NCBI GenBank assembly: GCA_031414595.1
Contig: JANNVX010000004.1
Span: 17,047 to 81,046 of the forward strand
Direction: 5' to 3'
DNA: 64,000 nucleotides
DNA from: Deinococcales bacterium
GTDB lineage: Bacteria; Deinococcota; Deinococci; Deinococcales; JAAFIG01
Shown here piece after piece: positions 2,219-63,739 of this stretch; position 1 is the stretch's first letter; each line of letters opens with the position of its first letter. The translations under genes were made by a program, and so were the position numbers. A model generated the notes under the pieces. It was given only the letters and a program-made list of their open reading frames with translations, had not been told where the DNA came from and searched no databases.

Positions 2219-2332
2219 GCTAAAACTTCTATCGGCTACATTGTCAATTTTTGCGTCTCTTACAAAAAAATTACTGAATTCGTGTAAGAGCTTTGTGATT
2301 TTTACTTGCTAGAATTGCCCGCGAGGTTAATC

Positions 2333-4090
2333 GTGAACAGTCTCTTTCAAATCAGTCGTTATACTTTAGGCGTTCTGCTTTGTACCATTTTTGTTGCCTG
2401 TACTTCGCTCCAGACAAGCGAACCGAGCAGAGAATTTATTCTGACTGTTAATTTAATTGCAAATGACACCGAGCAAGGCTTAATAAGTCGTTATGGTGGC
2501 AATCTGCTTTCTTTTAACCCAAAAGCAGGGTATGCAGTTCTAAAAGTAAATACACCACCAGTCAGCACCGATTTGGCAGTCAAGCACCTCGAGCCAAATA
2601 TTAAAATTGGTTCTACCGACGCTAAAATTAGTCTTGACCGTCCAAACATCACCACCCAAGGCGCAAGCACCGGCATGGCTAGTGTTGGTATGAGTGGTTG
2701 GGCTACATGGTCAAGTGGTTGGGCTACATGGTCAAGTGGCGAGACACTTCCGCGTATGCCTCTGCAAACCAGTGGTGTTTATATGAATTCTCGAGTTCCA
2801 CAAGCCCATGCGATTGCCCGTAATTTTGGGGCTGGTGTGATTGTGGCTGTTTTGGACACGGGTGTAGACGTATATCACCCAGGGATTTTTGGGCGTTTAA
2901 TCGAACCTACCAAGCGTTGGAATTTTGTGGACAATAATAATAATGTCAATGAAATCAGTGGAGGCGCAGGGTACGGACACGGTACAGCTGTGACTGGCAT
3001 TGTTTTACAGGTTGCCCCCAAAGCCACAATCATGCCACTTAAGGTTTTAGATGCAAATGGGGCTGGCGACTTAGACAACGTGATTGCTGCGATTGACTAT
3101 GCGGTCAAAAATGGCGCTCGAGTAATCAATATCTCTTTGGGTTCACATCAATTTTCAGATGCCCTATGGACAGTGATTAACAATGCCATCGAAAATAAAG
3201 TTTATGTTGTGGCGGCTGTAGGAAACGAAGGGCAATCTAATTCCGCCGATTACCCGGGGGCGCTAGGCTATAGACGACCAGGTTATATGGTTGGGGTTGG
3301 CAGTGTCAATGCTGACGACCAATTGTCGAGCTTCACCAATCGTGGCGGAGATGTGTTTATGTACGCTCCGGGTGAAAATGTTCCAACTTTAGCCCCAAAT
3401 TTCCAAACTGCTAATGCCACAGGTACTTCGTTTTCCACACCTCTGGTGGCGGGAGCATTGGCTTTGGCTTATGGTGAAGCCACAACTTCAGAAGCCCGAG
3501 AAGGTATTGGCAATACATTATGGAATTCTAACGAGCGAAATCGTTTATGGTGGCGATTTTATAGAAATGCGTTCATTTGTGACCTTTTAGGCAATACTTG
3601 GTGTCATAGCGAAGGTGGACTCGACGTTGAAAGGTTACTTTTGCAAATGTCTGGTTTTGTCCCGGCAGTCCAAAAAAGCACCGTGGACTTTATTCGCAAT
3701 GGCAACTTTGAACTTGGTGGGTTACAAGGTTGGACATCCTCTAGTTTTGTTGGCTATGACTACAACTCATTTTCAGGGGATTACGCGGCGGCAATTTATG
3801 GCACAGGCAACCTTAGCCAAAAAATAACTGGCTTAACCCCAAACACCACTTATCGCTTAACCGGGTGGACGCAAGTGAATAGACTGACTTCTTCGGTTCG
3901 TTTTGCGGTTCGTAACTTTGGTGGGACTTCGGTCATTGCTTCTAGTAATCAATTTAGTTTTGGGAATCTAAAACCACTCAGTCTAATCTTCACCACAGGT
4001 TCGTCGAGTACCACGGCTGATGTCGTGATTGAAAAAACTTTAGGAAAAGATATAGGTTGGATTGATCTTGTGACCCTCACCCGCAACTAG
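2333..4090 (+). CDS. S8 subtilisin-like lipoprotein peptidase with C-terminal CBM4/9-like domain
   Basis: Catalytic VLDTG, GHGT and GTSFS motifs; lipobox FVAC; C-terminal IRNGNFE...GW carbohydrate-binding-like module; start uncertain (2306 or 2333). Confidence 0.85.
   Translation: MNSLFQISRYTLGVLLCTIFVACTSLQTSEPSREFILTVNLIANDTEQGLISRYGGNLLSFNPKAGYAVLKVNTPPVSTDLAVKHLEPNIKIGSTDAKISLDRPNITTQGASTGMASVGMSGWATWSSGWATWSSGETLPRMPLQTSGVYMNSRVPQAHAIARNFGAGVIVAVLDTGVDVYHPGIFGRLIEPTKRWNFVDNNNNVNEISGGAGYGHGTAVTGIVLQVAPKATIMPLKVLDANGAGDLDNVIAAIDYAVKNGARVINISLGSHQFSDALWTVINNAIENKVYVVAAVGNEGQSNSADYPGALGYRRPGYMVGVGSVNADDQLSSFTNRGGDVFMYAPGENVPTLAPNFQTANATGTSFSTPLVAGALALAYGEATTSEAREGIGNTLWNSNERNRLWWRFYRNAFICDLLGNTWCHSEGGLDVERLLLQMSGFVPAVQKSTVDFIRNGNFELGGLQGWTSSSFVGYDYNSFSGDYAAAIYGTGNLSQKITGLTPNTTYRLTGWTQVNRLTSSVRFAVRNFGGTSVIASSNQFSFGNLKPLSLIFTTGSSSTTADVVIEKTLGKDIGWIDLVTLTRN
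2693..2739 (+). repeat. 21-bp tandem repeat encoding SGWATWS-SGWATWS-SG in the S8 propeptide
   Basis: agtggttgggctacatggtca twice, then agtgg. Confidence 0.9.
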
Positions 4091-4119: not shown

Positions 4120-5172
4120 ATGACTAATCAAAGCCAAATTCAGGAACTCAATCAAACGGCTTGGCAATTGCGCCACACTGACCGTAAGGCTTGCGAAACA
4201 CTCAGTCGCCAAGCTCTAGAATTGGCTGAATCGAGCAACGATAAAATCGGTCAAGGTTTTGCCTTGCGCTCCCTCGCTCATTGCTGTGTTACAACTGGAC
4301 AACCCGAACAAAGCCTTGAATTACTAACCCAAGCCCTCGAGATAGCCCAAACCCAACAAAATCAGCTACTCGAGCGTGACTGCCTAAATTTGCTGGCAGG
4401 GGTTCATAACTGGTTTGGTGATTTAGAACGGGCTGTTGGTCTGGTCAGCCAAGCCTACCGCCTGAGTATGCTCCTACAAGACGATGCCCAAATTAGCTCA
4501 TGCTTAAACAACATCAGTCTGATGTACCACCAACTCGGTCAAAACCTGACTGCCCTCGAGTACGCCCAAGAAGCCATTCAACAAGCCGCCAACACGGGCG
4601 ACCAAGTACGTGAGGCTATCGCCCTGTCAAATGCAGCCTTGGCATTAAGTGGATTATCCCAATTTGCAGAAGGTTTAAGCGCAATCGAAAAATCACAAAC
4701 CTTCTGTCAAGAACTTGGTCTCGAGGAATTACAACTCCGCAACCGAGTCAACCGAATCGAAATCTTGATTGGCTTAGAAAACCTTGCAGAAGCCCAGTCC
4801 GAAGTGAGTCAATGCTTAGAAATAGTACGCAGCCTTGATATTGCCGAAGGCGAAGCCCAGTGTTTGCTGCTGCAAAGCCAGATTCATCTAGCCCAAGCCA
4901 ATTATAGCCAAGCCCAACAAACCGCAAGTCTTGCCCTCGAGATTGCACGCACCGCTAAAATGCGTGGACTAGAAGCCAAAATTTGTTCTGAACTTGCCCA
5001 AGCCAATAAAGGCTTAGAGCAGTATGCCATTGCCCTCGAATACACCGCCCAAGCCCAAGCCATCGAAGCCGAAATGCGAACCGAAGGCGCACACCGTCGG
5101 ATGCGAACCTTATCTAAACTCAATCTGGTGGATCGGCTCGAGAGTTTACTGCGCTTGGAGCGGGTTAGTTAA
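4120..5172 (+). CDS. TPR-repeat protein with no output domain
   Basis: Repeated A..L..A / LNN(I/L) helical TPR pattern throughout. Confidence 0.8.
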   Translation: MTNQSQIQELNQTAWQLRHTDRKACETLSRQALELAESSNDKIGQGFALRSLAHCCVTTGQPEQSLELLTQALEIAQTQQNQLLERDCLNLLAGVHNWFGDLERAVGLVSQAYRLSMLLQDDAQISSCLNNISLMYHQLGQNLTALEYAQEAIQQAANTGDQVREAIALSNAALALSGLSQFAEGLSAIEKSQTFCQELGLEELQLRNRVNRIEILIGLENLAEAQSEVSQCLEIVRSLDIAEGEAQCLLLQSQIHLAQANYSQAQQTASLALEIARTAKMRGLEAKICSELAQANKGLEQYAIALEYTAQAQAIEAEMRTEGAHRRMRTLSKLNLVDRLESLLRLERVS

Positions 5173-7377: not shown

Positions 7378-8001
7378 ATGAAAATCATTTCTTTGATGCG
7401 CGAACCAATCAACACCATCACCCACGGAATCGGTGCGGTTATGGCACTTCTTTTTACAATCCTGATGCTGGTTTTATCAAACGGCAACTGGATTAACTTG
7501 GTGTTTGGCGTAAGCATGATGGTTTGTTACATCGCCAGTACCCTGCACCACGGCATACGCTCGAGTGAAAAAATTGAAGAATGGCTGCGCCGCCTTGACC
7601 ACAGCGCTATTTACTTACTGATTGCTGGAACGTATACCCCAGTTTTATGGCATGTTCTCGAGGGCGAGACCCGTTTGTACTGGTTACTTGGCGTTTGGGG
7701 TGTGGCAGCTTTTGGTGTGCTGCTGAAAACCTTGACCAGACCACCCGAATGGTTTTCCTTAACAATTTACATCGGCATGAGTTGGTTCGCCATTATTTTA
7801 CTGCCCAAGTTTATCGCTGGCTTACCATTGGCTGCCTTCATCGCCTTGGTGATTGGTGGGCTTTGCTACACCCTAGGTGTACCGTTTTATGCTCTAGGCA
7901 GACGGGTTCTCAAAAAAGGTTTATGGACATCCCATGAAATCTGGCATTTATTTGTACTGGCGGGCAGTGTTAGCCATTTTGTGATGGCAATCAATCTCTA
8001 A
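7378..8001 (+). CDS. Hemolysin III / PAQR family membrane protein
   Basis: NTITHG, STLHH, RRLDHSAIYLLIAGTYTP and HEIWHLFVL motifs. Confidence 0.92.
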   Translation: MKIISLMREPINTITHGIGAVMALLFTILMLVLSNGNWINLVFGVSMMVCYIASTLHHGIRSSEKIEEWLRRLDHSAIYLLIAGTYTPVLWHVLEGETRLYWLLGVWGVAAFGVLLKTLTRPPEWFSLTIYIGMSWFAIILLPKFIAGLPLAAFIALVIGGLCYTLGVPFYALGRRVLKKGLWTSHEIWHLFVLAGSVSHFVMAINL

Positions 8002-9643
8002 GCTGAGGACGGGTACAATTACGCCCAGCGTTCTTGGCGGAGTACATCGCTCGGTCAGCAATTTCAAAGAGCTTATTTTGATGCGCCACAGAAACATCGT
8101 CACACCAACCTAAACTGATTGTCACGCTTAAATCAGGGTGAATATCGGTCATGTCGGTACGGGCAATCACCTCCCGAATTCGTTCGCATAAACGGTAAAC
8201 CGCTAAACCACCAATTCCGGGCAGAATTAAAGCAAATTCCTCACCACCATAGCGAGCCACCAAATCATGACTTCGGCACTGCTCAGATAAAATTTTGGCG
8301 ATGCGTTGCAGCACCAAATCCCCAGCAGCATGTAAATACTTATCATTGACCAACTTAAAATGATCGATGTCGAGCAAAACAATGCTCAGTTTAGAACGGG
8401 TTTCGGTGGCTTCTAAAAAAACTCGAGCCACAAAGGTTTCTAAAGTGCGGCGATTGGCTAACCCAGTCAGGGAATCCTCGCTGGCTTGACGATCCAATTG
8501 CACATTTAAGCGGGTTAATTCCTCAGAACGCTGCTGATACCACAGGGCTTCACGGCGCACATTCTCACGTTCTATTTTAACCGCCAAAGCCTGAGATTGC
8601 CGTTCGGCACTTTCGGAACGCACCAACGAATCGAATTTATGAAACATTTCAAGATGCTGTAAGGCTAACTCAAACTCAGAACGAGCCTTAAAAACCTTAT
8701 AAAATTCTTTATGGACATCCGACAGGTATTTTTTAGCCGTATTGACTTCAAAATGGGCTTTTGCTTGACTTAAATGTCCTAACGCCGCCTCGAATTGGCG
8801 TTGCAGTGCAAAAACCCGTCCAAATTGCAATTCGCATTCACCCAAAGACTCGAGCGACCCATAACGCTGGGCATGAACCATCCCTTGCCCAACTGCCAAT
8901 TCTGCTGCCACAAAATCTTCTAAACCAGACATGATTTTAGACTGAATAATATAGGCTTCGGATAGTGTTGCCTGATCATCCGCCCGAATCAAATAAGTCA
9001 AAGCCAATTCGAGATGACCCAAGGCAAGCCTAAAATCCTCTTCTTTGGTTGGCTGATTTTTTTCTTCAATGATGGCATTGGCTAATGCCATTAGCGCACC
9101 ACCCTCGGCTCGAGTCCGCCCCATTTTTTGCGCCAAAATAATTGCTTGATTGGCATAATCAAAAGCAAAACTCCAATTTTTTAAGCACCGATGGGTCTGA
9201 CTTAAGTAAATTAAGCTGGCTAAACGTCCACCATCAATGCCATGGGTATTGGCGATTTCTAAGGCTTCTTCAAAAATACTTAAAGCATCAGAAAAGTCGC
9301 CCAAGTCTTGGTAAACCACGCCAATTTCCATCTGACACGCCAAGGCATTTGAAAAAGCACCATGCAAAAAATAAGTATCACAGGCTAAAAATAAATTTTT
9401 TAGCGCATTTTTAACATCAGACCCTCGAGCATGAACCTTACCAATCATTCGTAAGCCAAACGCATGAACTCGAGGGTTATCGTTGATTGAAAATTTCAAT
9501 AACGCCTCACCAAGTTCACGCTGTTCTTCTTTGGTGCTTTCAGCAAACTCGATATACACCGTATTGGTCAATAGCCGAATATCCTCATCAGATAAAATCT
9601 GCCGAAAACGATTGACGGCACTTTGAACATTAGTTTTCATCAT
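7991..9643 (-). CDS. TPR-repeat GGDEF diguanylate cyclase
   Basis: N-terminal TPRs, coiled linker, DSLTGLANR, DIDHFK.VND, RYGGEEF with RxxD I-site. Confidence 0.92.
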   Translation of the reverse strand: MMKTNVQSAVNRFRQILSDEDIRLLTNTVYIEFAESTKEEQRELGEALLKFSINDNPRVHAFGLRMIGKVHARGSDVKNALKNLFLACDTYFLHGAFSNALACQMEIGVVYQDLGDFSDALSIFEEALEIANTHGIDGGRLASLIYLSQTHRCLKNWSFAFDYANQAIILAQKMGRTRAEGGALMALANAIIEEKNQPTKEEDFRLALGHLELALTYLIRADDQATLSEAYIIQSKIMSGLEDFVAAELAVGQGMVHAQRYGSLESLGECELQFGRVFALQRQFEAALGHLSQAKAHFEVNTAKKYLSDVHKEFYKVFKARSEFELALQHLEMFHKFDSLVRSESAERQSQALAVKIERENVRREALWYQQRSEELTRLNVQLDRQASEDSLTGLANRRTLETFVARVFLEATETRSKLSIVLLDIDHFKLVNDKYLHAAGDLVLQRIAKILSEQCRSHDLVARYGGEEFALILPGIGGLAVYRLCERIREVIARTDMTDIHPDLSVTISLGWCDDVSVAHQNKLFEIADRAMYSAKNAGRNCTRPQLRD

Positions 9644-9693
9644 AAATAAAAGAGGTTTGGGACATGCCCAAACCTAAAAGACCTTTATTAAAT

Positions 9694-9870
9694 CTAGCAA
9701 TCTCCATTACAAAAACCCTTGGCTTTCGGTTTAGACGGTTCTGGTGAATCTGGTGGGTCTTGATACGCGCCGACTTCTGCTCTATCCCAACGATCACCTT
9801 TTGCCAATGCTGCTGGTAATGCAATTAAGCAAAACGCTAAACCAATTCCGAATAGCAACCTTTTAATCAT
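9694..9870 (-). CDS. Unannotated 58-aa secreted peptide (MIKRLLFGIGLAFCLIALPAALA|KGDRWDRAEVGAYQDPPDSPEPSKPKAKGFCNGDC)
   Basis: Translated by hand and below the ORF-track cutoff; G-rich RBS 7 nt before ATG, classic n/h/c signal peptide ending A-L-A, TAG stop about 50 nt before the TPR-GGDEF start. Confidence 0.75.
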   Translation of the reverse strand: MIKRLLFGIGLAFCLIALPAALAKGDRWDRAEVGAYQDPPDSPEPSKPKAKGFCNGDC

Positions 9871-10043
9871 TTTGTACCCCCGTTATAGTTCTTATACCTT
9901 ACCAAGTAAATACTTACAAAGACCTTACTAAAAAATTTTGTAAGAATTACAATCCCATTGTTTCAGACAACAAGAATAAGAACTGATTGGATTTGCAAAA
10001 AATAATGTGAGAGACTTTATAAAAACCATGCCGCCATATCAAC

Positions 10044-10071
10044 TTGACACCAGACAACAAAAGGCTATACT
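10044..10071 (+). promoter_or_regulatory. Sigma70-type promoter of the T-box leader
   Basis: TTGACA-16 nt-TATACT. Confidence 0.8.
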
Positions 10072-10074
10072 CGA

Positions 10075-10329
10075 GACGGGAAGAGTACCGAGTAAAAGCC
10101 CCCACAGAGAAGTGTTCCATAAGCTGAGAAGAACACTGGGAAAGCCGCAAGGGAACGTCACCCAAGCAACACCGAGGAAAGAAAGCCTAACCGCAATTAG
10201 AATCCTCTGGGTGCGCCCATCACAGCGCGTTTGAGCGCTCGAGACAACTCGAGAAAAGCGGTGGTAACGCGGGAGCGATTTTTTTCAAAAAACGCCATCT
10301 CGTCCGCAGATTTTACGGACGAGGTGTTT
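10075..10329 (+). ncRNA. T-box riboswitch leader with valine specifier
   Basis: AGAGA box (10106), GCTGAGA loop, specifier GAAC-GTC-A (GUC=Val, 10157); antiterminator GCGG-TGGTAAC-GCGGG (10258-10273) pairs with CTCGT-CCGC (10299-10307); mutually exclusive hairpin CTCGTCCG/CGGACGAG covers the GAGGTG RBS. Confidence 0.92.
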
Positions 10330-11327: not shown

Positions 11328-11774
11328 ATGAACCAAAATTTGATCATCACAGATGAATTTTCGAATCCAGATTCCGAAATGGAATACCTAAGTGATTATC
11401 CTTTAGATGCCAAAGCTCGAGCCAATGCCGAACAGTGCTGGCAATGCGGTGGTTGCTCGTATTTTTCACCATTTACTACAAGTTATGGTTTGTGTCACAA
11501 CCAAAATTCAAGGCATTATCTCGAAACTGTTTTTGAGCATTTTACCTGTGCTGTTATTGATATTGAATCGTGGGAATACCATAGTTTTGGTGCTGGAGAA
11601 ATCACAACTGAAATTCCAGAAAATGAATTGGATGCAAATGTTTGGGAAGCTGCCAAAAATGCGGTGCTTGCGTTGAAATCACATTATCCAGATGGTGAAT
11701 CACATGATGCTGTTAAACTGGTTTATAGAGTTTTAGACAACAAAGTCAAATTTGTTCTTGAAAAGAAATTCTAG
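11328..11774 (+). CDS. Cys-rich DUF3027-like protein
   Basis: QCGGCSYF...YGLC.N..S......FEHFTC pattern. Confidence 0.6.
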   Translation: MNQNLIITDEFSNPDSEMEYLSDYPLDAKARANAEQCWQCGGCSYFSPFTTSYGLCHNQNSRHYLETVFEHFTCAVIDIESWEYHSFGAGEITTEIPENELDANVWEAAKNAVLALKSHYPDGESHDAVKLVYRVLDNKVKFVLEKKF

Positions 11775-11814
11775 AGCCAAAGCATCAGGCTCGAGCCTCG
11801 AGAAAGAAGGAATC

Positions 11815-13743
11815 ATGAACCAAATTTCTATTGACAAAGCCGCCACAATTATGGGTGTTTCCTCTGCGACCATCAGAAATTGGGTCAAAGCTGGACTGAT
11901 AGAGCCTATCAATGCGCGTCCTATCGCTTTTTCCGAAGAAAGTGTGGCGCTCTTAAAAAATCAAGTCTCGAGTGGTGCGCTACAAAAATTACAAACCAGA
12001 GCCAATAAAGCCCAATCGAAAAATGATTTTATTCCGCTCGAGTACAATTCAAATTCTGGTTTTATCAGTATCTTAAACACCATTTTAGAACAATTTAAGA
12101 ACCATTCTTTAGCCATTGAACCGCTTTTATTTTTAGCTGCTCTTTGTTGTCTCGAGCAGAATAGCGAACTCAAACGCCCAATTCAATCAGATGTTTTTGA
12201 TTTGACCCAAGCAGAATTTACTCGAGTTTTGGTTAGACAAGAAATACTTGGCTGGCGAACTTCTCTGGGGGAAATAACCCATAAGGAACGTTACAAGGAT
12301 ATTTATGACTTACTTTTTACCAAAGACACAGAAGATTTACTGGGGATTTTATACCAGTCTTTACGCAGCGAAGGCAATAAATCGAATTTGGGTTCGTATT
12401 ACACCCCAACGCATTTGGTGCAAGATGCCTTACAATCTGTTCGGCTCGAGACGGTCAGTAATTTCCTAGACCCTTGTTGTGGCACTGGAAAATATTTAAT
12501 CGAGGCAGCAAAAACTTTTTCTTTGCCACCAGAATCTATTTATGGTTTTGATATTGACCAATTGGCTGTACAGATAGCCCGTGTCAATCTGCTGATGCAC
12601 TATAAAAAAGCAGAATTTTCCCCCAATATTTTTTGTCTGGATGCACTTTCTGACTTAGCCAATGGAGACTTTTTTTGCACCACAAATCACCTGATGGGGT
12701 TTTTTGATTTGATTGCCACCAATCCACCTTGGGGAGCGTATAAAAACTCGAGTATTCCAGTTCAGTTTCAGAATGTCCTCGAGTCCAGCGAAACCTATTC
12801 GATGTTTATTCTCAAATCCATGCAATTGCTGAAAAAAAGTGGAGCGCTTTCTTTTATTTTGCCTGAATCTATTCTAAAAATCCGAACTCACAGCGACATT
12901 CGAGAATTTATTGTTAAAAACAGTACAATGATAAAAATAATTCAACTCGGACGACAATTTAGTGGGGTTTTTACACCAGTTGTTCGCTTAGATTTGAAAA
13001 ATGAAATCCCAAACAACAATATGCTTGAACTGCATGACGAAAATAAATTGGTTACTCGAGTTGGTCAAAACAGATTTCTATACAATACCGATTATATTTT
13101 TGATACTCGAGTAGATGATACCGTAGAAGCCTTAATTCAAAAAATTTATGCAAAACCGCATTTGACTTTACAGGGTCATTCAGAGTGGGCGCTTGGGATT
13201 GTCACAGGCGATAACACTAAGTATTTACTCGAGCAGCCAACTCCCACTGCCGAAGCCATTTATAGAGGCATGGATATTAGCCCTTTTTACTTAACTGCTG
13301 CAAAAACATTTATCGAATTTACGCCAAGCCAGTTCCAACAAGTCGCTCCAGAACGGTTTTTTAGAGCAGATGAAAAACTGATTTACAAATTTATTTCAAA
13401 GAAATTGGTTTTTGCATTCGATGATACCCAAGCCCTAACGCTAAACAGCGCCAATATCCTGATTCCAAAATTGCCGAACATGAGCATCAAAGTTACAATG
13501 GCATTTTTGAACTCGAGTGTATTTCAGTTCTTATTTACCAAAAAATTCGCCACCCATAAGGTGCTGCGTGGAGACCTTGAAAAATTACCATTCCCGAATC
13601 TCGAGCCAGATGTCCACAATCAACTCGAGCAGCTTTTAGATAATGTGCTGGAAACAAAAATAGTGAGCGCAGAAATAGACAATTTGATATTTCAGATTTT
13701 TGAACTCACCCAAGAAGAAATAGATTTGATAGAGGGGACATAA
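11815..13743 (+). CDS. Gamma-class N6-adenine DNA methyltransferase with N-terminal HTH and TaqI_C-like target recognition domain
   Basis: GSYYTP, FLDPCCGTG, NPPW; N-terminal AATIMGVSSATIRNW HTH; C-terminal LGIVTGDN...FLNSS. Confidence 0.9.
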   Translation: MNQISIDKAATIMGVSSATIRNWVKAGLIEPINARPIAFSEESVALLKNQVSSGALQKLQTRANKAQSKNDFIPLEYNSNSGFISILNTILEQFKNHSLAIEPLLFLAALCCLEQNSELKRPIQSDVFDLTQAEFTRVLVRQEILGWRTSLGEITHKERYKDIYDLLFTKDTEDLLGILYQSLRSEGNKSNLGSYYTPTHLVQDALQSVRLETVSNFLDPCCGTGKYLIEAAKTFSLPPESIYGFDIDQLAVQIARVNLLMHYKKAEFSPNIFCLDALSDLANGDFFCTTNHLMGFFDLIATNPPWGAYKNSSIPVQFQNVLESSETYSMFILKSMQLLKKSGALSFILPESILKIRTHSDIREFIVKNSTMIKIIQLGRQFSGVFTPVVRLDLKNEIPNNNMLELHDENKLVTRVGQNRFLYNTDYIFDTRVDDTVEALIQKIYAKPHLTLQGHSEWALGIVTGDNTKYLLEQPTPTAEAIYRGMDISPFYLTAAKTFIEFTPSQFQQVAPERFFRADEKLIYKFISKKLVFAFDDTQALTLNSANILIPKLPNMSIKVTMAFLNSSVFQFLFTKKFATHKVLRGDLEKLPFPNLEPDVHNQLEQLLDNVLETKIVSAEIDNLIFQIFELTQEEIDLIEGT

Positions 13744-14483
13744 TGGAAATCTTAAAACAACATTTAGACAATTTACTCGAGCAATTAGAGCAAGAAAAAC
13801 GCGAAGAAATCATGCAGCGATTAGATGATTTACTTTCGGTCTACCCTTTTAACGAATTTGAATTTTTAATCGCAACACTGATGGGAAATAACAAAATTTT
13901 ATTAAACGATTACTACGATCTACGCGACGAATACTTAGCTCGGAATATGTACTTGCATCTTTTTGAAATGACTTCACCCCGAGGATTTGGAGAAAGTTGG
14001 GCGCAAGGTCACTTAAAAGAAATCGTTCCAGAACTGGTTAAGCCTACTCAGAAATTAGACTCGAGCTATTCAGGACAATACGATTTTCTACTCGGCGACA
14101 TCAAAATCGAAGTGAAAGCCTCTCGAGCCGTAGATTTTAATAGCCAAGAAGCACTGTATGTCAAAGCCCTAGCCTCGAGTTCAGGAAAACGCTTCGATAT
14201 GAACTTCCAGCAAGTCAAACCCGCTTGTGCCGATGTTTTTATTTGGATTGGCGTTTGGCGAGATGTGATTCGGTACTGGGTACTGGCATCCAACGAAATT
14301 GCAAACAACAAGTATTACTCGACTGGTCAACACCGAGGTAACACAGGCGAAGGGCAAATACACCTCAAAGACGATAATATCAGTAGTTTCGCAGCTTTTG
14401 AAACCAGCCCAAGGGATTTACTCGAGAAAATAAGGAAAGCCCATCGGAGGCAACATCAAAAAACTCGAGGACGGAGAAAATAG
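13743..14483 (+). CDS. Putative type II restriction endonuclease (PD-(D/E)xK)
   Basis: YD....IEVKAS and FQQVKP motifs; translationally coupled to the methyltransferase (TAATG). Confidence 0.75.
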   Translation: MEILKQHLDNLLEQLEQEKREEIMQRLDDLLSVYPFNEFEFLIATLMGNNKILLNDYYDLRDEYLARNMYLHLFEMTSPRGFGESWAQGHLKEIVPELVKPTQKLDSSYSGQYDFLLGDIKIEVKASRAVDFNSQEALYVKALASSSGKRFDMNFQQVKPACADVFIWIGVWRDVIRYWVLASNEIANNKYYSTGQHRGNTGEGQIHLKDDNISSFAAFETSPRDLLEKIRKAHRRQHQKTRGRRK

Positions 14484-14765: not shown

Positions 14766-15539
14766 ATGAATTTGAAAAAAGCTAGAAAACATTTGAAAGA
14801 ATGGGCAGAACAAGGCTCTGGTTATGTGCAAAAACTTCATTTGGAAAACATTGATGAAGTGAGTGACTTACTATGTTTCGTAGCTGGATACTGCTTTGAA
14901 CTTTCTCGAGAAAAATTTTACGACATAAAACCTAAATCAAATTGGCACTGGAGAATCAATCATAAGAGAACAATATCTCACGGAACTGTATATTGGGATG
15001 AACTATTGATAGATGTGGTTGATGCTGAAAACTATGAACCCCAATATCAGTTTCTTTTAGGTATATATTTTTTATTGCAGAGTAGTGCAATCTATTCAAG
15101 TTCACTTTATCAGATTTGGCTAGGGGGCGAAGAATTTCAGACAATGGTGATTGAAGATGAAGTCCCGATAGCGATTCTGCCGCCAGACTCGCAAAAAATA
15201 ATTTATTGGTATGAAACTGATTTCGCTGAAAGTGATTTTTCCCCTGAATTCATGCCTGCACCAAATATGTTTGCCCGAATTTATTGGCAGGATTTTTTAA
15301 GAAAAAAGTATCCAAAAAAATCTACTTGTTTTGATTGCGGTTCAGACAATGCGACTCATGCACATCATGATGGCAAAGAAGTATCTGAACTTGCAAAAGA
15401 GGGGATTTGGCATCGTCCAGATGAACACAAAGTAGTAATGCTTTGTGCAGAATGTCATGTAAAACGTCACGAAGGTACGAAATCAGCAAATTTCTTAAAA
15501 GTATTTACTGTTGGTCGTCAAAAAAGGAAACAACCATGA
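14766..15539 (+). CDS. Protein with C-terminal zinc-binding HNH endonuclease domain
   Basis: CFDC...HAHH...LCAECHVKRH; stop overlaps the valS ATG. Confidence 0.7.
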   Translation: MNLKKARKHLKEWAEQGSGYVQKLHLENIDEVSDLLCFVAGYCFELSREKFYDIKPKSNWHWRINHKRTISHGTVYWDELLIDVVDAENYEPQYQFLLGIYFLLQSSAIYSSSLYQIWLGGEEFQTMVIEDEVPIAILPPDSQKIIYWYETDFAESDFSPEFMPAPNMFARIYWQDFLRKKYPKKSTCFDCGSDNATHAHHDGKEVSELAKEGIWHRPDEHKVVMLCAECHVKRHEGTKSANFLKVFTVGRQKRKQP

Positions 15540-18169
15540 ATGAATTACCCGCCAAATACGAACCATCGTCTGTCGAATCTTCTTGGTCTGAACTCTGGGC
15601 TAAACCTGGTACGTTTCGTGCCGATGCTACCTCGAGCAAACCTGCTTTTACCATTGTTATCCCACCGCCTAATGTAACGGGTAGCCTCCACCTTGGTCAT
15701 GCGCTCGATAACACAATTATTGATGTCCTGACCCGCTTTAAGCGCATGGCGGGCTTCGAGGCGCTGTATTTGCCGGGGACTGACCATGCGGGAATCAGTA
15801 CCCAAGTGCTGGTCGAAAAAGAACTTGCCCTCGAGGGGCTGCACAAAAACGACCTCGGGCGCGAGAAATTCCTCGAGCGAGTCTGGGCATTCAAAGAAAA
15901 AAATGGCGGCACGATTCTCAAGCAACTGACCCGCCTTGGTATCTCTGCCGATTGGTCTCGAGAACGTTTTACCATGGATGCTGGGCTTTCCAAAGCCGTG
16001 CGACGTACTTTTGTCGAATACGTAGCGAAGGGCATGGCGTACCGTGGCGAGAAAATTGTCAATTGGGACCCTGTTGCCCAAACCGTTCTGTCTGACCTCG
16101 AAGTTGACCGTGAGGATCGTCAGGGCAAAATGTACACTTTATCCTACGCCCTCGAGGATGGAAATGGCGTAATCAACGTGGCAACTGTCCGTCCTGAAAC
16201 GATTTTTGCTGACCAAGCCGTGGCGGTTCATCCCGATGATGCGCGGTTCTCGAGCCTTGTTGGGCAAAATGTGCGGATTCCGCTAACCGATAGGCTGATT
16301 CCAATTATTGCTGACTCGAGTGTTGAAATGGATTTTGGAACGGGTTGTCTTAAAATCACCCCAGCCCACGACCCAACCGATTTTGAAATTGGTTTGCGCC
16401 ACAACTTAGCCACGCCCAGTGTGATTGATAAATTTGCCAAACTGACTTCCGACCTTGTGCCAGAAGAATTTAGGGGTATCGAGCGTTTCGCTGCCCGTAA
16501 AGCTGTGGTCAAGGCACTCGAGGCATCAGGCGCACTGCTCGAGGCAAAAGATTATAAAGTCAGTATTGGCATTTCGGAGCGCACCAAAGAACCAATTGAG
16601 CCAATGGTCATGACCCAGTGGTGGTGCAAAATGGATAAGCCCGCCAAGCAAGTTCTCGAGGCACTGGAAGATGGCAGAATAAAAACTGTGCCTGAGCGCT
16701 ACACCAAGGTCAATCGTGATTGGCTCGAGAATATCCGTGAATGGGCGATTGGGCGGCAACTCTGGTGGGGGCATCAAATTCCAGCTTGGTACGATGCGGA
16801 TGGTAAAATCTATGTGCCAGACCTCGAGAATCCTGATTTGGATTGTGACCAAGACCCTCGTTACGCGCATCTGAATCTGACTCGAGACCCTGATGTTTTC
16901 GATACGTGGTTTTCGAGCGCACTCTGGAATTTTAGTACCATGGGCTACCCTGACCAAACCGAGGATTTAGCCAAGTTCTACCCGAATAGTGTGCTGGTGA
17001 CAGGTTATGACATCCTGTTTTTCTGGGTAGCACGGATGCAAATGGCGGGCTTTGAATTTACGGGTCAAGCGCCGTTTCATACGGTCATGCTGCATGGTTT
17101 GTACTTGGATGCCAAGGGTCAGAAGATGAGTAAATCCAAGAATAATGGCATTGACCCACTCGAGTTAATGGATAAGTACGGCGTGGATGGTTGTCGTTTT
17201 GCATGGGCGTATTTGTCTACGGGTGGGCAGGACATCAAGCACGATGAACGCCGTTACGAAATGGGACGAAATTTTTCCAATAAACTCTGGAATGCGTCGC
17301 GTTTTGCAATGATGAATCTCGAGCTTGGGCATTCGGAAATGGGCATGAGCTTAGGCGCTGCGCCAGCCAGTTTTGGTGCGACCCTGGCGGATGCTTGGAT
17401 TGTCTCGAGGCTGTCCGAAACCATTGCAACTGCCACGGCACAACTCGAGGCGTATGACCTTGGCGCTTCAATTCGGACCATTTACAGTTTTACTTGGGAT
17501 GATTTTTGTGATTGGTACATCGAAGCGGCTAAACCAGCTTTGAAAGCACAAAATCCTGTTACCCAAACCACGATTAAACGGGTTCTCGAGGCGATTCTGA
17601 AATTGCTTCATCCGTTCATGCCATTTATCACTTCAGAAATTTATGCAGCATTAAACCCTAAGCATGGACAATTGGCGTTTGAACCTTTTCCTCGAGCCGA
17701 TGAATTTGCGGTGGATACAGCTTCACTCGAGGAATTCGAGAAAGTCAAAAATGCAATTACGGCTGTGCGGGTCTTGCGGAATGAATTGATGATTCCGCCA
17801 ATGCAGATGCTGACCGTGGCTGTGGACGGGGTGAACTCTGGTGCAGTAGCCAAGAACCTCGAGACGTTTACTGGACTTGCCAAAGCCGAACTGGGCGAGG
17901 TGAGCGGCAAAATTATTAACTCGGTCGCGCCTGGACTCGAGGTGCTACTAGCACTCGAGGGGCTGATAGATACTACCGAATACGTGGCTCGGGGCAAGAA
18001 AAAAGTGGTTGAACTCGAGAAGCAAGTGGCACAAGCCAAAGGTAAGTTAAGCAATGAGAATTTCTTTAAGAATGCCCCACAAGAAGTTCTGCTCGAGGAA
18101 CAAAGGCGGATAGAGGATTTTGGAATGCAGTTAGAGCGCTTGCAAAAAGTTTTGGCGCAATTTGCTTAA
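15536..18169 (+). CDS. valS: Valine--tRNA ligase
   Basis: PPPNVTGSLHLGH, DHAGISTQ, RQLWWGHQIP, KMSKS motifs and C-terminal coiled arm. Confidence 0.98.
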   Translation: MNELPAKYEPSSVESSWSELWAKPGTFRADATSSKPAFTIVIPPPNVTGSLHLGHALDNTIIDVLTRFKRMAGFEALYLPGTDHAGISTQVLVEKELALEGLHKNDLGREKFLERVWAFKEKNGGTILKQLTRLGISADWSRERFTMDAGLSKAVRRTFVEYVAKGMAYRGEKIVNWDPVAQTVLSDLEVDREDRQGKMYTLSYALEDGNGVINVATVRPETIFADQAVAVHPDDARFSSLVGQNVRIPLTDRLIPIIADSSVEMDFGTGCLKITPAHDPTDFEIGLRHNLATPSVIDKFAKLTSDLVPEEFRGIERFAARKAVVKALEASGALLEAKDYKVSIGISERTKEPIEPMVMTQWWCKMDKPAKQVLEALEDGRIKTVPERYTKVNRDWLENIREWAIGRQLWWGHQIPAWYDADGKIYVPDLENPDLDCDQDPRYAHLNLTRDPDVFDTWFSSALWNFSTMGYPDQTEDLAKFYPNSVLVTGYDILFFWVARMQMAGFEFTGQAPFHTVMLHGLYLDAKGQKMSKSKNNGIDPLELMDKYGVDGCRFAWAYLSTGGQDIKHDERRYEMGRNFSNKLWNASRFAMMNLELGHSEMGMSLGAAPASFGATLADAWIVSRLSETIATATAQLEAYDLGASIRTIYSFTWDDFCDWYIEAAKPALKAQNPVTQTTIKRVLEAILKLLHPFMPFITSEIYAALNPKHGQLAFEPFPRADEFAVDTASLEEFEKVKNAITAVRVLRNELMIPPMQMLTVAVDGVNSGAVAKNLETFTGLAKAELGEVSGKIINSVAPGLEVLLALEGLIDTTEYVARGKKKVVELEKQVAQAKGKLSNENFFKNAPQEVLLEEQRRIEDFGMQLERLQKVLAQFA

Positions 18170-18217: not shown

Positions 18218-18276
18218 TCAATTGGGATAAAACTTAACTCAAAAAGCAAGTGATTAGATTTAGAGGAAAACAAAAC

Positions 18277-19299
18277 ATGATACTGAGTGGACGTTACCTT
18301 GGTGAAATTATTGATGCTTTTGGCACTATCGCCGAACGCGCCGAACTTCGTGCCAAAATTGGATTTACGGATTTACATCGTGTCCTTGAAGATTTTTTCA
18401 TGAATATCCTAAATGAATTGGATAACCTGAGTCTGACAAATACCAATAGAGAAGCTGCTAATAGTGCTGGAATAGATCTGTACGATGCCAATTCAAAAAT
18501 CGGTATTCAAATCACAACGGTTAGTAGTTCGGACAAAATAAATAATACTCTACGTGTGGTTCACGAACAAAATAATACTCTCAAAAGTTCTAATGTCGAA
18601 GCGTTGTACGTGTTAATTATTGGCAAAAAACAAGGCTCATATAAACTAGATTCTACGCTGTGTGAGGCGCTTGATTTCAATGAAAAAGACAATATTTGGG
18701 ATATTGTTACATTGTCCCGAAAACTTATTGGAATTAAACCTGATGTACTTGAGAGCATTTATAAGTTTGTCATGCGTGAACTTACTCGAGTAAGAATAGA
18801 ACTTGAATTACCTGACTCTAATGGCGAATTTCCCACCGATTTAGGGCAATACATGGAAGTAAGCCCATCAAATGAATTAGGAGAATGTAAGAAGCTCAAA
18901 GAATTCTGCACTGCTAATGGGTGGGACAATGGTTTTGAAGAGGCTATTTCTGAGCTAAGACTTTACTTTCAAAAATTAAGCTCATTGCCAAGAATTACCC
19001 GACAAGTGCTTGGTGAAATTATTGATAATCGTGAACCTAATCAATCCAAAATATATGTTATTTGGGAAAAATTTCGACGAATTTGTACATATCCTGAACT
19101 TGATACGGAATTTAACATTCTTGTATACGACAATTATCTTACACGAAACATTCATGAAGAGGAACGAATTATCACAGTTCACGTTAAGGGTGATGGGGAT
19201 AGGATTCTAGGGTATCTTGAGCCTTTCCTACAGCGGGAAAGTAAAACTTTCAATAAATTATTTTCAACTTTTGATTTCTCAATCTTTGAGAACCCATAA
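18277..19299 (+). CDS. SMEK domain-containing protein (defence-associated nuclease-like fold)
   Basis: D.H...EDFF..ILN.....L.N.N......IDL.D......QIT.....KI..T pattern; AT-rich. Confidence 0.75.
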   Translation: MILSGRYLGEIIDAFGTIAERAELRAKIGFTDLHRVLEDFFMNILNELDNLSLTNTNREAANSAGIDLYDANSKIGIQITTVSSSDKINNTLRVVHEQNNTLKSSNVEALYVLIIGKKQGSYKLDSTLCEALDFNEKDNIWDIVTLSRKLIGIKPDVLESIYKFVMRELTRVRIELELPDSNGEFPTDLGQYMEVSPSNELGECKKLKEFCTANGWDNGFEEAISELRLYFQKLSSLPRITRQVLGEIIDNREPNQSKIYVIWEKFRRICTYPELDTEFNILVYDNYLTRNIHEEERIITVHVKGDGDRILGYLEPFLQRESKTFNKLFSTFDFSIFENP

Positions 19300-19450
19300 A
19301 TTCTGTTACTAATTTTCAAATGTATAGTTTCGCATTTCGCATAATTTCACGTTTTTGCACGTCCGTTAGAACAACATTTTTTATGCGAAAAATCCCTCAT
19401 TTACTTCATAAATTGCAATTCACTTATTTCACTTGTGCTATACTCGAGCT

Positions 19451-19870
19451 ATGCGACCGATTGTTCTGTCTGCCCAAGCCGCCCAGACTGCTCGAGAAGT
19501 TGGGCAACAACTCCTATCCGGACAACTCGCTTTTCACTCGAGCAATGGCGAAGTTACGTTATTGCCACAAGAAACCTTGCGTGTTTTCCAAGAAGTTCTC
19601 GAGCAATTGGGGCAAGAACGCTCTGTGGTGGTTTTACCGCTTGATACAGAACTTAGTACCTTTGAAGCTGCCGATGTGCTGAATGTCTCACGTCCCTTTG
19701 TGACCAAACTACTCGAGCGCGGCGAAATGCCGTTTCGGATGGTTGGGGCGCACCATCGGGTACTACTGGCGGATGTGTTGAAATACCAATCTGAGCAACG
19801 TCAGCGCAGTCTAATTGCGATGCAGGAATTAGCCGAACTCTCACAAGAACTTGGGTTGTACGATTCGTGA
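19451..19870 (+). CDS. Excisionase-like HTH antitoxin/regulator
   Basis: ELSTFEAADVLNVSRPFVTKLLERGEMPFRMVGAHHRV; TG-x-TATACT 6 nt before ATG. Confidence 0.85.
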   Translation: MRPIVLSAQAAQTAREVGQQLLSGQLAFHSSNGEVTLLPQETLRVFQEVLEQLGQERSVVVLPLDTELSTFEAADVLNVSRPFVTKLLERGEMPFRMVGAHHRVLLADVLKYQSEQRQRSLIAMQELAELSQELGLYDS

Positions 19871-20430
19871 TTGCGGTTCTCGATGCTAATGTGTTGTACT
19901 CGGCACGTTTACGAGATTTTTTTATTTGGCTGGCATTACAAAATGCGTACCAAGCCCATTGGACAGCCGAAATCCAAGCCGAATGGAAACGTAATTTATT
20001 GCAAAATCGACCTGAAATTCTTGTGGCTAATCTCGAGCGTACCCAAAAACTGATGGATAGGGCTTTACCTGATGCGTTACTCGAGAATGTGCCTCGGCTC
20101 GAGGTTATTCTTCCAGATACGAACGACATTCATGTTCTTGAGGCAGCCATTTATGCACAAGCGGGTTATGTGGTGACAAACAATTTACGAGACTTTCCTC
20201 AAGCCATCCTCGAACCTTTTGGTGTGATTGCTTTGGGTCCTGATGACTTTGTGATGCGTATTCTTGAACGTACACCAAATCTTGTGTTGAAGGCGATTCA
20301 AATGCAGGTGGCGAATTTACAACGCCCTCCAATTGGCATCAATACCATGTTGCTGCAACTCGAGGAACAGGGATTGGTGAAAGTTGTGGATTGGTTGCGC
20401 GGACAATTGTTACCAGAAAGTCGTGCTTGA
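19867..20430 (+). CDS. PIN domain toxin (PIN_3/VapC-like)
   Basis: VLDANVLY, LPDTNDIHVLEAA and VTNNLRDFP motifs. Confidence 0.88.
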   Translation: MIAVLDANVLYSARLRDFFIWLALQNAYQAHWTAEIQAEWKRNLLQNRPEILVANLERTQKLMDRALPDALLENVPRLEVILPDTNDIHVLEAAIYAQAGYVVTNNLRDFPQAILEPFGVIALGPDDFVMRILERTPNLVLKAIQMQVANLQRPPIGINTMLLQLEEQGLVKVVDWLRGQLLPESRA

Positions 20431-35611: not shown

Positions 35612-35712
35612 AAGTTTTAATTGATACTAATGTGCTAATTGCAGCCGTATTTTTGAATCATGAATGGAAAAAATTGAAAAACTCATTCATACACTTTAGA
35701 GATTACTTATGA
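35608..35712 (+). pseudogene. Truncated VapC/PIN toxin (34 codons)
   Basis: TTG-KVLIDTNVLIAA...NHE then unrelated sequence; overlaps the AbrB stop and the purD start. Confidence 0.8.
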
Positions 35713-40579: not shown

Positions 40580-40601
40580 GGGCGAACCTTGTGTTCGCCC
40601 T
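40576..40601 (+). repeat. GTAG-type REP supplying the purN stop codon
   Basis: GTAGGGGCGAACCTTGTGTTCGCCCT; TAG at 40577-40579. Confidence 0.85.
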
Positions 40602-40660
40602 GTGCAGCACATGCCCTTTTCAAGAATGTCCAGCAAGACATCCATTGGAGGAGAAATAAA

Positions 40661-62572: not shown

Positions 62573-63739
62573 TCAAATTGGTTTGACTGACTTGGATAAA
62601 ACGGCAATGACCGCACCTGCCAGCAAGACCGCTAACAACCCAAAACGCAAAGAAACCACTTCGGATAACAAACCAATAAATGGTGGACCCACCAGAAAAC
62701 CACTGTAGGCAATACTGCTCACCCAAGCGATGGCAGGACCGCTTGAGCCTTGCTCGAGCTTAGAAACCAAACCAAGTGCAGCCGGAAAAATGACGGCAAA
62801 CCCTGCACCGACAAAACCAAAACCAATAATCGTTGTCCAGACCAGATTGGGTGTAATAGCCAAAATCATACCAAAGGTTGCTACTAAGCCACTGATTAGT
62901 AAGACTCGAGCATCTCCAAGACGCAAGCGCAGTTGATCGCCAGTAAATCGAAAAATTGCCATACAGAACTGAAAAGCCACAAAACCTGCGGCGGCTAAAC
63001 CTGCATCTGCACCGAGTGAGTTCTTCAAATACAATGCGCCCCAATCGGCAATTGCGCCTTCGCCCAATAAAGCACAAAAAGCAATCGCCCCAAGTGCCAT
63101 TAAACCCGAAGACAATTTTAACTTTGGCTGAGACTGGGTTTGTGTGGGCTGAATATCTGCAATTAAGTATCTGGAAAGCACAAAAAAAGCAATCAAGCTC
63201 AGTACACCAATCAAGACCAAGTGAAGACTAGCCGCTAAACCAAAACCTGCCAAGACCCCACCAACGGCTGCCCCCAGTAAACTACCGACGCTCCATAAAG
63301 CATGAAAACTCGAGAGGATGGGGCGCTCGAAGCCTTGTTCTATGGTTGTTCCTTGGGTGTTCATGGCTACGTCTAAACCTGCGTTGCTTGCTCCCCAAAT
63401 AAATAAAGTGAACACCAATAAGCCGATGTTGGGGGTCAAAGCCAGAAACATGGTACTGATGGCAAACCCTAAGCTACACAAAAGCGTTAATCGTCTCGAG
63501 CCGAACTGAACACATAAACGCCCGACCAAAGGCATACTGACCAAAGCACCTACAGCAGAAGCCAACAGCACCAACCCCAATGTACCCGTAGATAAATTTA
63601 AGGCTTGACTGACATCCGGAATTCGCACCACCCAATTGGCAATCGTAAAACCGTTGAAGAAAAAAATTGCGGCGACAGCCCAGCGTCCAAGAATCAAAGA
63701 TTGTGCGATGGGTGTATTGGTAGTCTGAGATAAATCCAC
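62573..63739 (-). CDS. MFS transporter
   Basis: Multi-TM pattern, DVAMN, SSFHALWSVG and EGAIADW motifs. Confidence 0.9.
   Translation of the reverse strand: MDLSQTTNTPIAQSLILGRWAVAAIFFFNGFTIANWVVRIPDVSQALNLSTGTLGLVLLASAVGALVSMPLVGRLCVQFGSRRLTLLCSLGFAISTMFLALTPNIGLLVFTLFIWGASNAGLDVAMNTQGTTIEQGFERPILSSFHALWSVGSLLGAAVGGVLAGFGLAASLHLVLIGVLSLIAFFVLSRYLIADIQPTQTQSQPKLKLSSGLMALGAIAFCALLGEGAIADWGALYLKNSLGADAGLAAAGFVAFQFCMAIFRFTGDQLRLRLGDARVLLISGLVATFGMILAITPNLVWTTIIGFGFVGAGFAVIFPAALGLVSKLEQGSSGPAIAWVSSIAYSGFLVGPPFIGLLSEVVSLRFGLLAVLLAGAVIAVLSKSVKPI

Follow-up and report, generated by a model that had tools for sequence, protein, structure and literature searches.

Does a small exported peptide encoded just ahead of an enzyme that makes cyclic di-GMP (c-di-GMP) serve as a signal for that enzyme, or do the two genes merely stand side by side? 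The question is raised by a 64,000-nucleotide stretch of a Deinococcales bacterium (contig JANNVX010000004.1, positions 17,047 to 81,046), referred to below as the window and numbered from its own first letter. In it, a 58-amino-acid (aa) pre-pro-peptide gene (9694..9870, minus strand) precedes the gene of a cytoplasmic diguanylate cyclase that combines tetratricopeptide repeats (TPRs), a coiled coil, and a GGDEF domain (550 aa; 7991..9643, minus strand; domains from Pfam and NCBIfam). A sequence-only reading of this DNA had proposed a circuit resembling the RRNPP peptide-receptor systems with a diguanylate cyclase as its output. We find that the small open reading frame (ORF) is almost certainly a genuine gene and that, judged from its N-terminus, its product is very probably exported. 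A functional link of any kind between the small gene and the cyclase strikes us as slightly short of an even bet. The explanation that we favor overall, an export-import peptide circuit gating the adjacent TPR-GGDEF cyclase, has in our estimate about one chance in three of being right.

The small gene, found in the ORF listing and belonging to no known family, opens with ATG, and a Shine-Dalgarno-like GGGGG (9877..9881, minus strand; read from the sequence) lies 6 nt ahead of that codon. Residues 1-23 (9802..9870, minus strand) form a putative signal peptide by hydropathy and by a hand rule, with K3 and R4 in the n-region, a hydrophobic core, and A-L-A at residues 21-23, which places the heuristic cleavage point after residue 23. 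The mean Kyte-Doolittle value of the 19-aa core is 2.45, against 2.39 for the neighboring HlyIII membrane protein and 1.18 for the cyclase. The mature part comprises 35 aa with the C-terminal end FCNGDC, and a gap of 50 nt separates the gene from the co-oriented cyclase ATG at 9643. The ribosome-binding site (RBS), the signal peptide ending in A-L-A, the mature part, and the spacing of about 50 nt on the same strand are therefore all present as the sequence-only reading had described them. All signal-peptide calls in this work come from the hand heuristic (basic n-region, hydrophobic core, small residues at -3 and -1), not from SignalP. Because 6 of the 379 window ORFs of 40-120 aa pass this rule, a single such ORF is unremarkable, and the weight of the case rests on conservation. 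Searches with the peptide returned no family in Pfam, NCBIfam, or PADLOC, a best E of 0.33 (next 0.48) in PHROGs, a best E of 0.5 among PDB sequences (an NMDA-receptor chain, taken as chance), a best score of 0.78 in the ESM Atlas, which is under the level of a usable lead, and nothing at E up to 1 by tblastn against plasmids. A search of the window and the related loci for paralogues, as ORFs ending in C-x3-C, recovered the orthologues described next plus two unrelated short ORFs (window 62632..62712 and locus L003 8414..8521).

Relatives were sought in one scan of genome contigs with cyclase residues 1-385 as the query. Of 44 matching stretches, three encode a relative: L001, L002, and L003, with 92, 86, and 81% identity to the window over these residues. 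All three records are titled as Deinococcales or Deinococcota metagenome-assembled genomes, in agreement with the lineage that had been proposed; L001 is a 3.3-kb contig on which the cyclase is cut off. A small ORF with matching start, RBS, and signal-peptide layout stands before the cyclase gene in every one of them, so the expectation that small signal-peptide ORFs would be found beside TPR-GGDEF homologues was borne out at 3/3 loci. The orthologues occupy 1806..1982 in L001 (58 aa), 2632..2808 in L003 (58 aa), and 2738..2920 in L002 (60 aa, counted from the ATG that aligns with the conserved AACGGGGGT). The RBS columns AACGGGGGT are invariant across the four aligned loci even though the L002 upstream DNA is otherwise only 27-60% identical. 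The signal-peptide layout is likewise kept in all four copies, which end the signal peptide in A-F-A, A-L-A, or, in L002, V-F-A, and all four pass the hand rule. The L002 copy is highly divergent in sequence, yet it keeps the basic n-region, the hydrophobic core, V-F-A, and the C-terminal end. Length differences between copies occur in frame only, and in the close copies (window, L001, L003) the peptide frame is the sole stop-free frame of six. For these three, which give non-independent pairs, the pooled ratio of nonsynonymous to synonymous polymorphism (pN/pS) is 0.50 (Fisher p 0.0046); the antisense frame gives a similar ratio but contains stops. In pairwise comparisons, the ratio of nonsynonymous to synonymous substitution rates (dN/dS) is 0.35-0.53 for the peptide; the cyclase as a whole gives 0.09-0.34 and its TPR core 0.07-0.12.

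Alignment of the four copies divides the peptide into three zones. The signal peptide has nearly the same DNA in the window, L001, and L003; next comes a spacer that varies, and last a conserved C-terminal dodecapeptide, directly followed by the stop codon. The spacer (residues 24-46; 9733..9801, minus strand) is rich in Pro, Asp, and Lys and evolves fast; in L002 it has a different sequence and is 4 residues longer. Over the mature part, dN is 0.13-0.24 among the close copies, compared with 0.03-0.07 for the TPR core. The dodecapeptide, K-P-K-[AS]-K-x-[FY]-C-x3-C (9697..9732, minus strand), is the candidate active end. Numbered on the mature peptide, P25, K26, K28, C31, and C35 do not vary among the four copies, and even in L002 the last 12 codons retain 60-78% DNA identity, against 33-49% for the remainder of the gene. 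The last seven residues read GFCNGDC, AFCGGDC, NFCGEGC, and HYCGSDC across the four copies, which share the aromatic position and both cysteines and differ from one another elsewhere. Two candidates for the active piece had been put forward from the sequence. KGDRWD is unlikely to be it, since it sits in the fast-evolving spacer, where the relatives carry KGDSSD, KGSLSD, and FGG-DD. The alternative, the CNGDC Cys-loop, does coincide with the part of the peptide conserved in all four copies. The alignment thus supports a peptide built like an exported pro-peptide, whose conserved part is a C-terminal Cys-loop end preceded by the basic K-P-K-[AS]-K. In RRNPP pro-peptides such as Phr, PapR, and AimP, the active piece lies at the C-terminus.

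Judged by its domains and motifs, the neighboring protein is cytoplasmic and joins a TPR sensor to a cyclase that appears to be active. If the second ATG is used, which is the only one in L002, its length becomes 549 aa. The GGDEF catalytic domain (residues 388-542; 8018..8482, minus strand) matches PF00990 with E 2.3e-38 and 132 bits (cut-off 23.8) and TIGR00254 with E 3.6e-44, and TPR_12 matches residues 106-168 with E 7.8e-11; other TPR models match the protein too. The inhibitory RxxD site of such enzymes stands five residues before the GGDEF motif; here the run RSHD-LVARY-GGEEF, with GGEEF at 466, leaves both the A-site and the I-site motifs intact. There is no membrane-like segment, the top 19-aa hydropathy being 1.18 versus 2.39 for the HlyIII control, so the description of a cytoplasmic TPR-GGDEF protein with an intact GGEEF holds. 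An AlphaFold2 (AF2) model of residues 1-385, built from a 4-row alignment (mean pLDDT 71.9, pTM 0.63), contains 17 helices arranged as a five-helix cap, a TPR superhelix, and a long helix toward the GGDEF domain. The model is of high confidence up to about residue 280 and of low confidence over 284-358; the 10-residue blocks of the cap have pLDDT means of 73-96. The cap (residues 1-100; 9344..9643, minus strand) is hypervariable, and the core superhelix (about residues 101-345; 8609..9343, minus strand) is near-invariant across the four loci.

One indication that the peptide and the sensor may belong together comes from the way in which variation is distributed, followed here by a sliding DNA identity profile and by dS across the four loci. 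Compared with the window, L003 is 93-100% identical over the upstream region and the signal peptide. Across the mature peptide the identity declines, reaching 58% at the final codons; the intergenic DNA and the part encoding cyclase residues 1-100 are 31-62% identical, and beyond about residue 105 the value is again 91-96%. The replaced block is contiguous, taking in the 3' end of the peptide gene, the intergenic spacer DNA, and cyclase residues 1-100 between flanks of 91-100%. Over cyclase residues 1-100, L003 has a dS of about 2.0 and a dN of 0.62, compared with 0.31 and 0.026 for residues 101-380. L002 differs in another segment, from about 10040 to 9720, which covers the upstream region, the signal peptide, and the spacer at 27-67% identity, while the last twelve codons and everything downstream lie at the 73-89% background; dS in L002 is 1.7 for the peptide and 0.77 for its cyclase. 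It is at the 3' end of the peptide gene that the two replaced segments come together, and the L003 segment links the peptide tail with the receptor cap. A polymorphic signal-receptor locus gives such an island, and recombination at a fast-evolving secreted product with a hitch-hiking neighbor gives the same picture, two histories that four genomes cannot separate.

Co-folding of the TPR part with the mature peptide gave a score of 0.52 (runs 0.52, 0.53, and 0.47), with the best of three controls at 0.19, at least 59% contact agreement between runs, and a partner pLDDT of at least 42, for a verdict of weak support. The mark is reached by 58 of 80 solved complexes and by 2 of 110 mismatched pairs, counts that hold roughly for the shallow 4-row alignments used here. 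Since solved TPR-peptide complexes exist, a pass of this kind may also reflect likeness to them. In a Foldseek search of the PDB with the AF2 model, the TPR domains of LGN/Pins come first (E 1e-8, TMq 0.52-0.59); RapF (3ulq) appears at rank 24 (E 3.6e-7, TMq 0.52), and RapF-PhrF (4i9c), RapI, and the phi3T and pLS20 Rap-peptide complexes follow at E 2e-6 to 2e-5, with Rap chains overall spanning TMq 0.41-0.54. As modeled, the sensor is a TPR groove of the kind that holds extended peptides, and nothing in it marks RRNPP kinship. Direct binding of the peptide to the cyclase, or direct control of it, is on this evidence a tentative proposal that we rate as doubtful.

The favored circuit may be pictured as follows. 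Sec would export the peptide, and signal peptidase I would cut after Ala23, releasing a 35-aa pro-peptide made of the fast-evolving spacer and the conserved K-P-K-[AS]-K-x-[FY]-C-x3-C end. Outside the cell the two cysteines would probably form a five-residue disulfide loop, and trimming after the basic stretch could yield a Cys-loop 7- to 12-mer (the 7-mer here being GFCNGDC). The peptide or its C-terminal piece would accumulate outside, re-enter, and bind the cap/TPR sensor of the adjacent cyclase. By analogy with RcbB of Vibrio vulnificus, the TPR domain would restrain the cyclase, and we infer, the sign of the effect included, that binding would change c-di-GMP synthesis. The locus may work like an RRNPP export-import circuit with a second-messenger output; it is not a member of that family.

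The resemblance to the RRNPP systems (Rap-Phr, NprR-NprX, PlcR-PapR, AimR-AimP) is one of layout: a small Sec-tagged pro-peptide gene adjoins the gene of a cytoplasmic TPR receptor, the conserved part of the pro-peptide is its C-terminal end, and the cyclase TPR model aligns to Rap structures. The published signature of these systems comprises a pro-peptide of 10-100 aa, a Sec/SPI tag, a receptor of 250-500 aa, TPRs, and direct neighborhood (PMC10075063). Measured against this signature, the locus agrees in four of five features (pro-peptide size, secretion tag by the hand rule, TPR receptor, adjacency) and departs in receptor length, at 550 aa instead of 250-500, the sensor part alone being about 345-385 aa. 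In the reference receptors the TPRs lie C-terminal to a helix-turn-helix or Rap-type effector, and the cluster filter of RRNPP_detector drops N-terminal TPRs and domains absent from those receptors (PMC10075063); with N-terminal TPRs, a C-terminal GGDEF domain, and no helix-turn-helix or Rap-type output, this locus would be discarded by it, and systems of this build would have been filtered out. The lineage, Deinococcota and not Bacillota, and the two cysteines in the putative active end also set it apart. RRNPP membership therefore does not hold, on receptor length, TPR position, and output domain, and there is no significant sequence kinship. The main text of the RRNPP surveys checked contains neither 'Deinococc' nor 'cyclase'; titles and abstract openings of literature joining RRNPP with diguanylate cyclase or GGDEF gave quorum-sensing reviews and an RpfR/DSF structure and no such pair; and a literature search, whose reach ended at subscription journals and supplementary files, returned no description of an exported peptide paired with a TPR-GGDEF protein.

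Three other arrangements bear comparison. Experimentally, the best precedent for the cyclase architecture is RcbB of V. vulnificus: its N-terminal TPR represses the fused GGDEF cyclase, RcbA, a TPR protein encoded by the upstream gene, relieves the repression, and RcbAB homologues are reported in gamma- and beta-proteobacteria, not in Deinococcota (PMC12282931). In architecture, both loci have a cytoplasmic N-terminal-TPR/C-terminal-GGDEF cyclase with an upstream neighbor gene. The partner there is a large TPR protein in a bicistronic operon, unlike the 58-aa exported peptide without TPRs found here; because the upstream partner is not a TPR protein, the locus is not an RcbAB pair. The window shares with YfiR/YfiN a signal-peptide-bearing product encoded just upstream of a diguanylate cyclase. 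In the YfiBNR (TpbB) system, periplasmic YfiR, encoded just upstream, controls the membrane cyclase YfiN, and cysteines and redox state matter for YfiR. YfiN, however, is a membrane protein with a periplasmic sensor and YfiR a folded protein of ~190 aa, whereas here there is a 35-aa peptide and a cyclase without a membrane segment; as this cyclase has no periplasmic part, the locus is not of the YfiR/YfiN type. The comQXP locus of Bacillus carries a hypervariable island over its signal gene and the N-terminal sensor of its receptor, a membrane histidine kinase that responds to a modified peptide. The likeness lies in an island made of the signal gene and the receptor N-terminal part between conserved flanks; the receptor type and the peptide modification differ, and here the two variable blocks occur in different genomes, among the four seen.

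A number of observations weigh against the favored circuit. In 3/4 loci a terminator-like hairpin lies between the peptide gene and the cyclase; in the window it has 9 bp (5 GC), a loop of 5, and a U-rich run abutting the cyclase start codon (9644..9675, minus strand). Its folding energies are -15.8 kcal/mol in the window (z against shuffles -2.6), -17.7 in L001 (-2.3), and -13.5 in L002 (-1.25); no such hairpin is found between the two genes in L003 (z 0.14). A terminator scan gave 3 sites in 2.7 kb, where shuffled sequences lead one to expect 3.5, which alone is not above chance, so the case for the hairpin rests on its position and conservation. Its presence in three of four loci means that the peptide gene may be a separate transcription unit. 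A weak Rfam match to cyano_het_sRNA at 9650-9718 (22.8 bits versus a gathering score of 35.7, E 0.056) was rejected as an sRNA; it corresponds to the terminator-like hairpin. Only close relatives were compared, and at 81-92% protein identity a common gene order may simply reflect descent. Three distant matches (23-31% identity) came from tblastn of the TPR part against plasmids. Two Deinococcus loci among them were inspected, L004 and L005 (TPR homologues at 23-25% identity), and neither has a neighboring ORF of the peptide's build; the hand rule finds no signal-peptide ORF beside the TPR gene in L005 and one in L004, antisense inside an annotated gene. The peptide gene stands upstream of its presumed receptor, and in classic RRNPP pairs it is mostly downstream. 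No Opp-type oligopeptide permease is encoded within the 64-kb window, where the sole ABC importer is of the sugar type.

Further results weigh against a pairing at the molecular level. The co-variation of peptide and receptor that the sequence-only reading would lead one to look for is not cleanly seen across the four genomes: L002 has a very different spacer and signal peptide, yet an 86%-identical TPR part, and core TPR residues 101-380 hardly vary (dN 0.026-0.079), yet no two of the four copies share a C-terminal 7-mer. With four genomes, the missing clean co-variation is weak evidence either way. In the fold search Rap ranks below LGN, and the likeness is that of a generic TPR. Sequence searches with the TPR part agree: in the PDB, NprR is reached only at E 0.25 and Pins/LGN is best at about 1e-5; Pfam, NCBIfam, and PADLOC return generic TPR families only, with no RRNPP-specific Pfam or NCBIfam model; and the ESM Atlas returns only generic TPR_12 clusters. 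Finally, co-fold passes at 0.60 or under comprise only 7 of the 80 solved complexes plus both of the passing mismatches, a class in which errors outnumber correct calls unless the pairing was already likely on other grounds. Of the circuit proposed from sequence, what stands is a real and conserved gene, its exported-pro-peptide build, a neighboring cytoplasmic TPR-GGDEF protein, the Deinococcota lineage, a hypervariable island over the peptide gene and the receptor cap, and a weak co-fold pass of 0.52 against a control of 0.19 in a class of that reliability; family membership falls away, there is a hairpin between the genes, and clean co-variation is missing. In its fullest form, the reading is of an RRNPP-like peptide signal that gates a cyclase through its TPRs, the first outside Bacillota and the first with c-di-GMP output, with the Cys-loop end and the cap co-diversifying in a pherotype-like manner, and in that form we consider it rather unlikely.

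The main competitor holds that the genes are independent neighbors: an exported Cys-loop peptide would have an envelope or extracellular role of its own, with its own promoter and terminator, and the adjacency would be inherited. The C-x3-C thiol pair could have a redox or metal-binding function, or the peptide could play a part in competition or antimicrobial defense, and the cyclase TPR would sense a protein partner, for example the TPR-only protein encoded at 4120-5172, as RcbA acts on RcbB. The hairpin in 3/4 loci fits this account, as do the conserved palindrome and separate upstream region of the peptide gene, a gene order common to close relatives only, the generic TPR fold, and the TPR-only paralogue of the same TPR-plus-helix build 3 kb away; fast evolution of a secreted product requires no receptor, and control of a TPR-GGDEF protein by a TPR partner is documented (PMC12282931). 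It is harder to reconcile with L003, where the replaced block joins the peptide 3' end to the receptor cap and there is no hairpin between the genes, and with the co-fold pass over the best control. The TPR-only gene is, moreover, not adjacent, and neither an S8 nor a TPR gene was found at the corresponding positions after wecG in L003, where the two ORFs scanned are an HRDC-domain protein and an OHCU decarboxylase; Pfam, NCBIfam, and PDB sequences gave no family or motif match that would speak for a redox or metal role. Independent neighbors are, to our judgment, an unlikely explanation but one that carries real weight. Between it and the favored circuit lies a link without direct cytoplasmic binding, in which the peptide acts outside the cytoplasmic membrane on another receptor or on the envelope. 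It would then share regulation with the cyclase by read-through of a leaky terminator, or be itself an output of c-di-GMP signaling, both genes serving one behavior such as biofilm or surface life. The cyclase start codon follows directly on the hairpin U-run (region 9640-9652, minus strand) and has no Shine-Dalgarno-like run upstream, so its expression may depend on read-through or on a leaderless transcript. On the same strand and at a gap of 50 nt, it may thus need transcripts that pass through the peptide gene; L003 lacks the hairpin. Re-import would be complicated by a diderm-type envelope and by a disulfide loop, which also favors action outside. Yet no candidate outside receptor is in view, and a hypervariable receptor cap beside the peptide gene reads more easily as a contact surface, and we regard this version as improbable.

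Two further explanations concern the small ORF itself. Its hydrophobic stretch might stay uncleaved, so that the small product crosses the membrane once and exposes its tail on the outside, or is an atypical lipoprotein via Cys14; in either form it may tether or localize partners at the membrane. A Cys within the hydrophobic core is indeed conserved in 4/4 copies, L002 included (F-C-L). The small residues at -3 and -1 (A-x-A, V-x-A) that follow the core in all four copies, however, point to cleavage; Phe, which is not canonical at lipobox position -1, precedes the Cys in every copy; and an anchored form would have only four residues on the cytoplasmic side, not enough for contact with a TPR domain there. 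We assign such an anchor or lipoprotein a low probability. The ORF could instead be a cis-acting leader, either a translated upstream ORF or an arrest peptide of the secretion-monitor type, that sets read-through of the hairpin and hence cyclase expression. It does lie directly upstream of the hairpin that abuts the cyclase start, and its last twelve codons, next to the stop, are the most conserved. The stop codon, though, is 18 nt from the foot of the hairpin, beyond the reach of a terminating ribosome; L003 retains the peptide without the hairpin; signal-peptide features needless for a mere leader are kept in the divergent allele; and the regulated gene is not a secretion factor. Together these make a cis-acting leader very improbable.

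Upstream of the peptide gene, a palindrome, AATACTTACAAA-N16-TTTGTAAG.ATT (9909..9948, with no strand assigned), is found in all four loci. Its arms are 12 nt long and 92% complementary in the window, 100% in L001 and L003; in L002 they are 15 nt long and 100% complementary with a 3-nt gap. From its sequence it could be a candidate operator or a 5'-UTR hairpin. Near-invariant DNA farther upstream, considered as a leader of the peptide gene, was ruled out as such, being a T-box leader on the opposite strand (about 10064-10310, plus strand; 10044-10310 by its wider bounds). It gives a full-length match to RF00230 at 61 bits and E 1.1e-12, below the gathering score of 93; Rfam in gathering mode has no match in the whole window. 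The leader is nearly invariant in L001-L003 and is preceded by a near-consensus TTGACA-16-TATACT promoter. It precedes a tandem-NUDIX gene in the window, L002, and L003, not an aminoacyl-tRNA synthetase gene; the candidate specifier, read from the alignment by eye, is GUC (Val), and valS (15443-18169), in the same orientation, is encoded 5 kb farther along. Since the TTG listed as the start of the NUDIX ORF (10231) lies within the leader, the gene probably begins near 10330 instead.

On the other side of the cyclase, an S8 serine protease gene with a lipobox-like N-terminus (2306-4090, plus strand) is followed after 30 nt by the 350-aa TPR-only protein (4120-5172, plus strand), which is three genes from the cyclase on the other strand and ends in the same kind of long helix as the cyclase sensor. 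Nothing ties the lipobox-like S8 protease to the peptide. A homologous S8 and TPR pair occurs on a Deinococcus sp. QL22 plasmid (L004 1319-5181; 45% identity over 234 aa and 28% over 300 aa), with HD-domain and GGDEF-domain genes directly after it. These two instances hint, as a lead only, that TPR sensors, exported proteases, and c-di-GMP enzymes travel together in the lineage. The S8 and TPR pair could form a second TPR/c-di-GMP module, or else supply the peptide locus with a partner or a processing enzyme.

Elsewhere in the window, 11752-14483 (plus strand) encodes a 663-aa N6-adenine DNA methyltransferase (N6_Mtase, Eco57I, TaqI_C) with an N-terminal MerR/HTH_17-like helix-turn-helix, followed by a 246-aa family-less ORF. 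Both lie where the GC content of the window is lowest (0.378 at 12001-14000), flanked by the NUDIX gene and valS, and the region is probably an inserted restriction-modification island. Just after valS (18250-20430, plus strand) come genes for a SMEK-domain protein, an excisionase-type DNA-binding protein, and an RSP_2648-family PIN-domain protein; the second and third overlap and resemble a toxin-antitoxin pair. Two purine genes are fused ORFs: purD (residues 5-423) with purM (437-763) at 35709-38030 (plus strand), and PurL (213-960) with PurQ (997-1239) in a 1243-aa ORF at 40589-44320 (plus strand). At 52524-54730 (plus strand), an ATPase of 436 aa matches the model of retron-Ec78/Septu PtuA (E 7.8e-41; its 140 bits fall short of the cut-off, 500), and with the overlapping 299-aa family-less ORF that comes next it makes a possible Septu-like defense pair.

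To our knowledge, genetically encoded peptides that signal from within the cell are regarded as a specialty of Bacillota, with outputs limited to transcription factors and Rap-type proteins. If the favored circuit is right, such circuits would extend to Deinococcota and, with a c-di-GMP cyclase under peptide control, to a further type of output; TPR-GGDEF enzymes, a common group for which a cue is seldom known, would gain a class of ligand that can be put to the test. Should the connection with the cyclase not hold, the locus still contributes a conserved, so far unannotated, and family-less peptide, very probably exported, with a Cys-loop tail.

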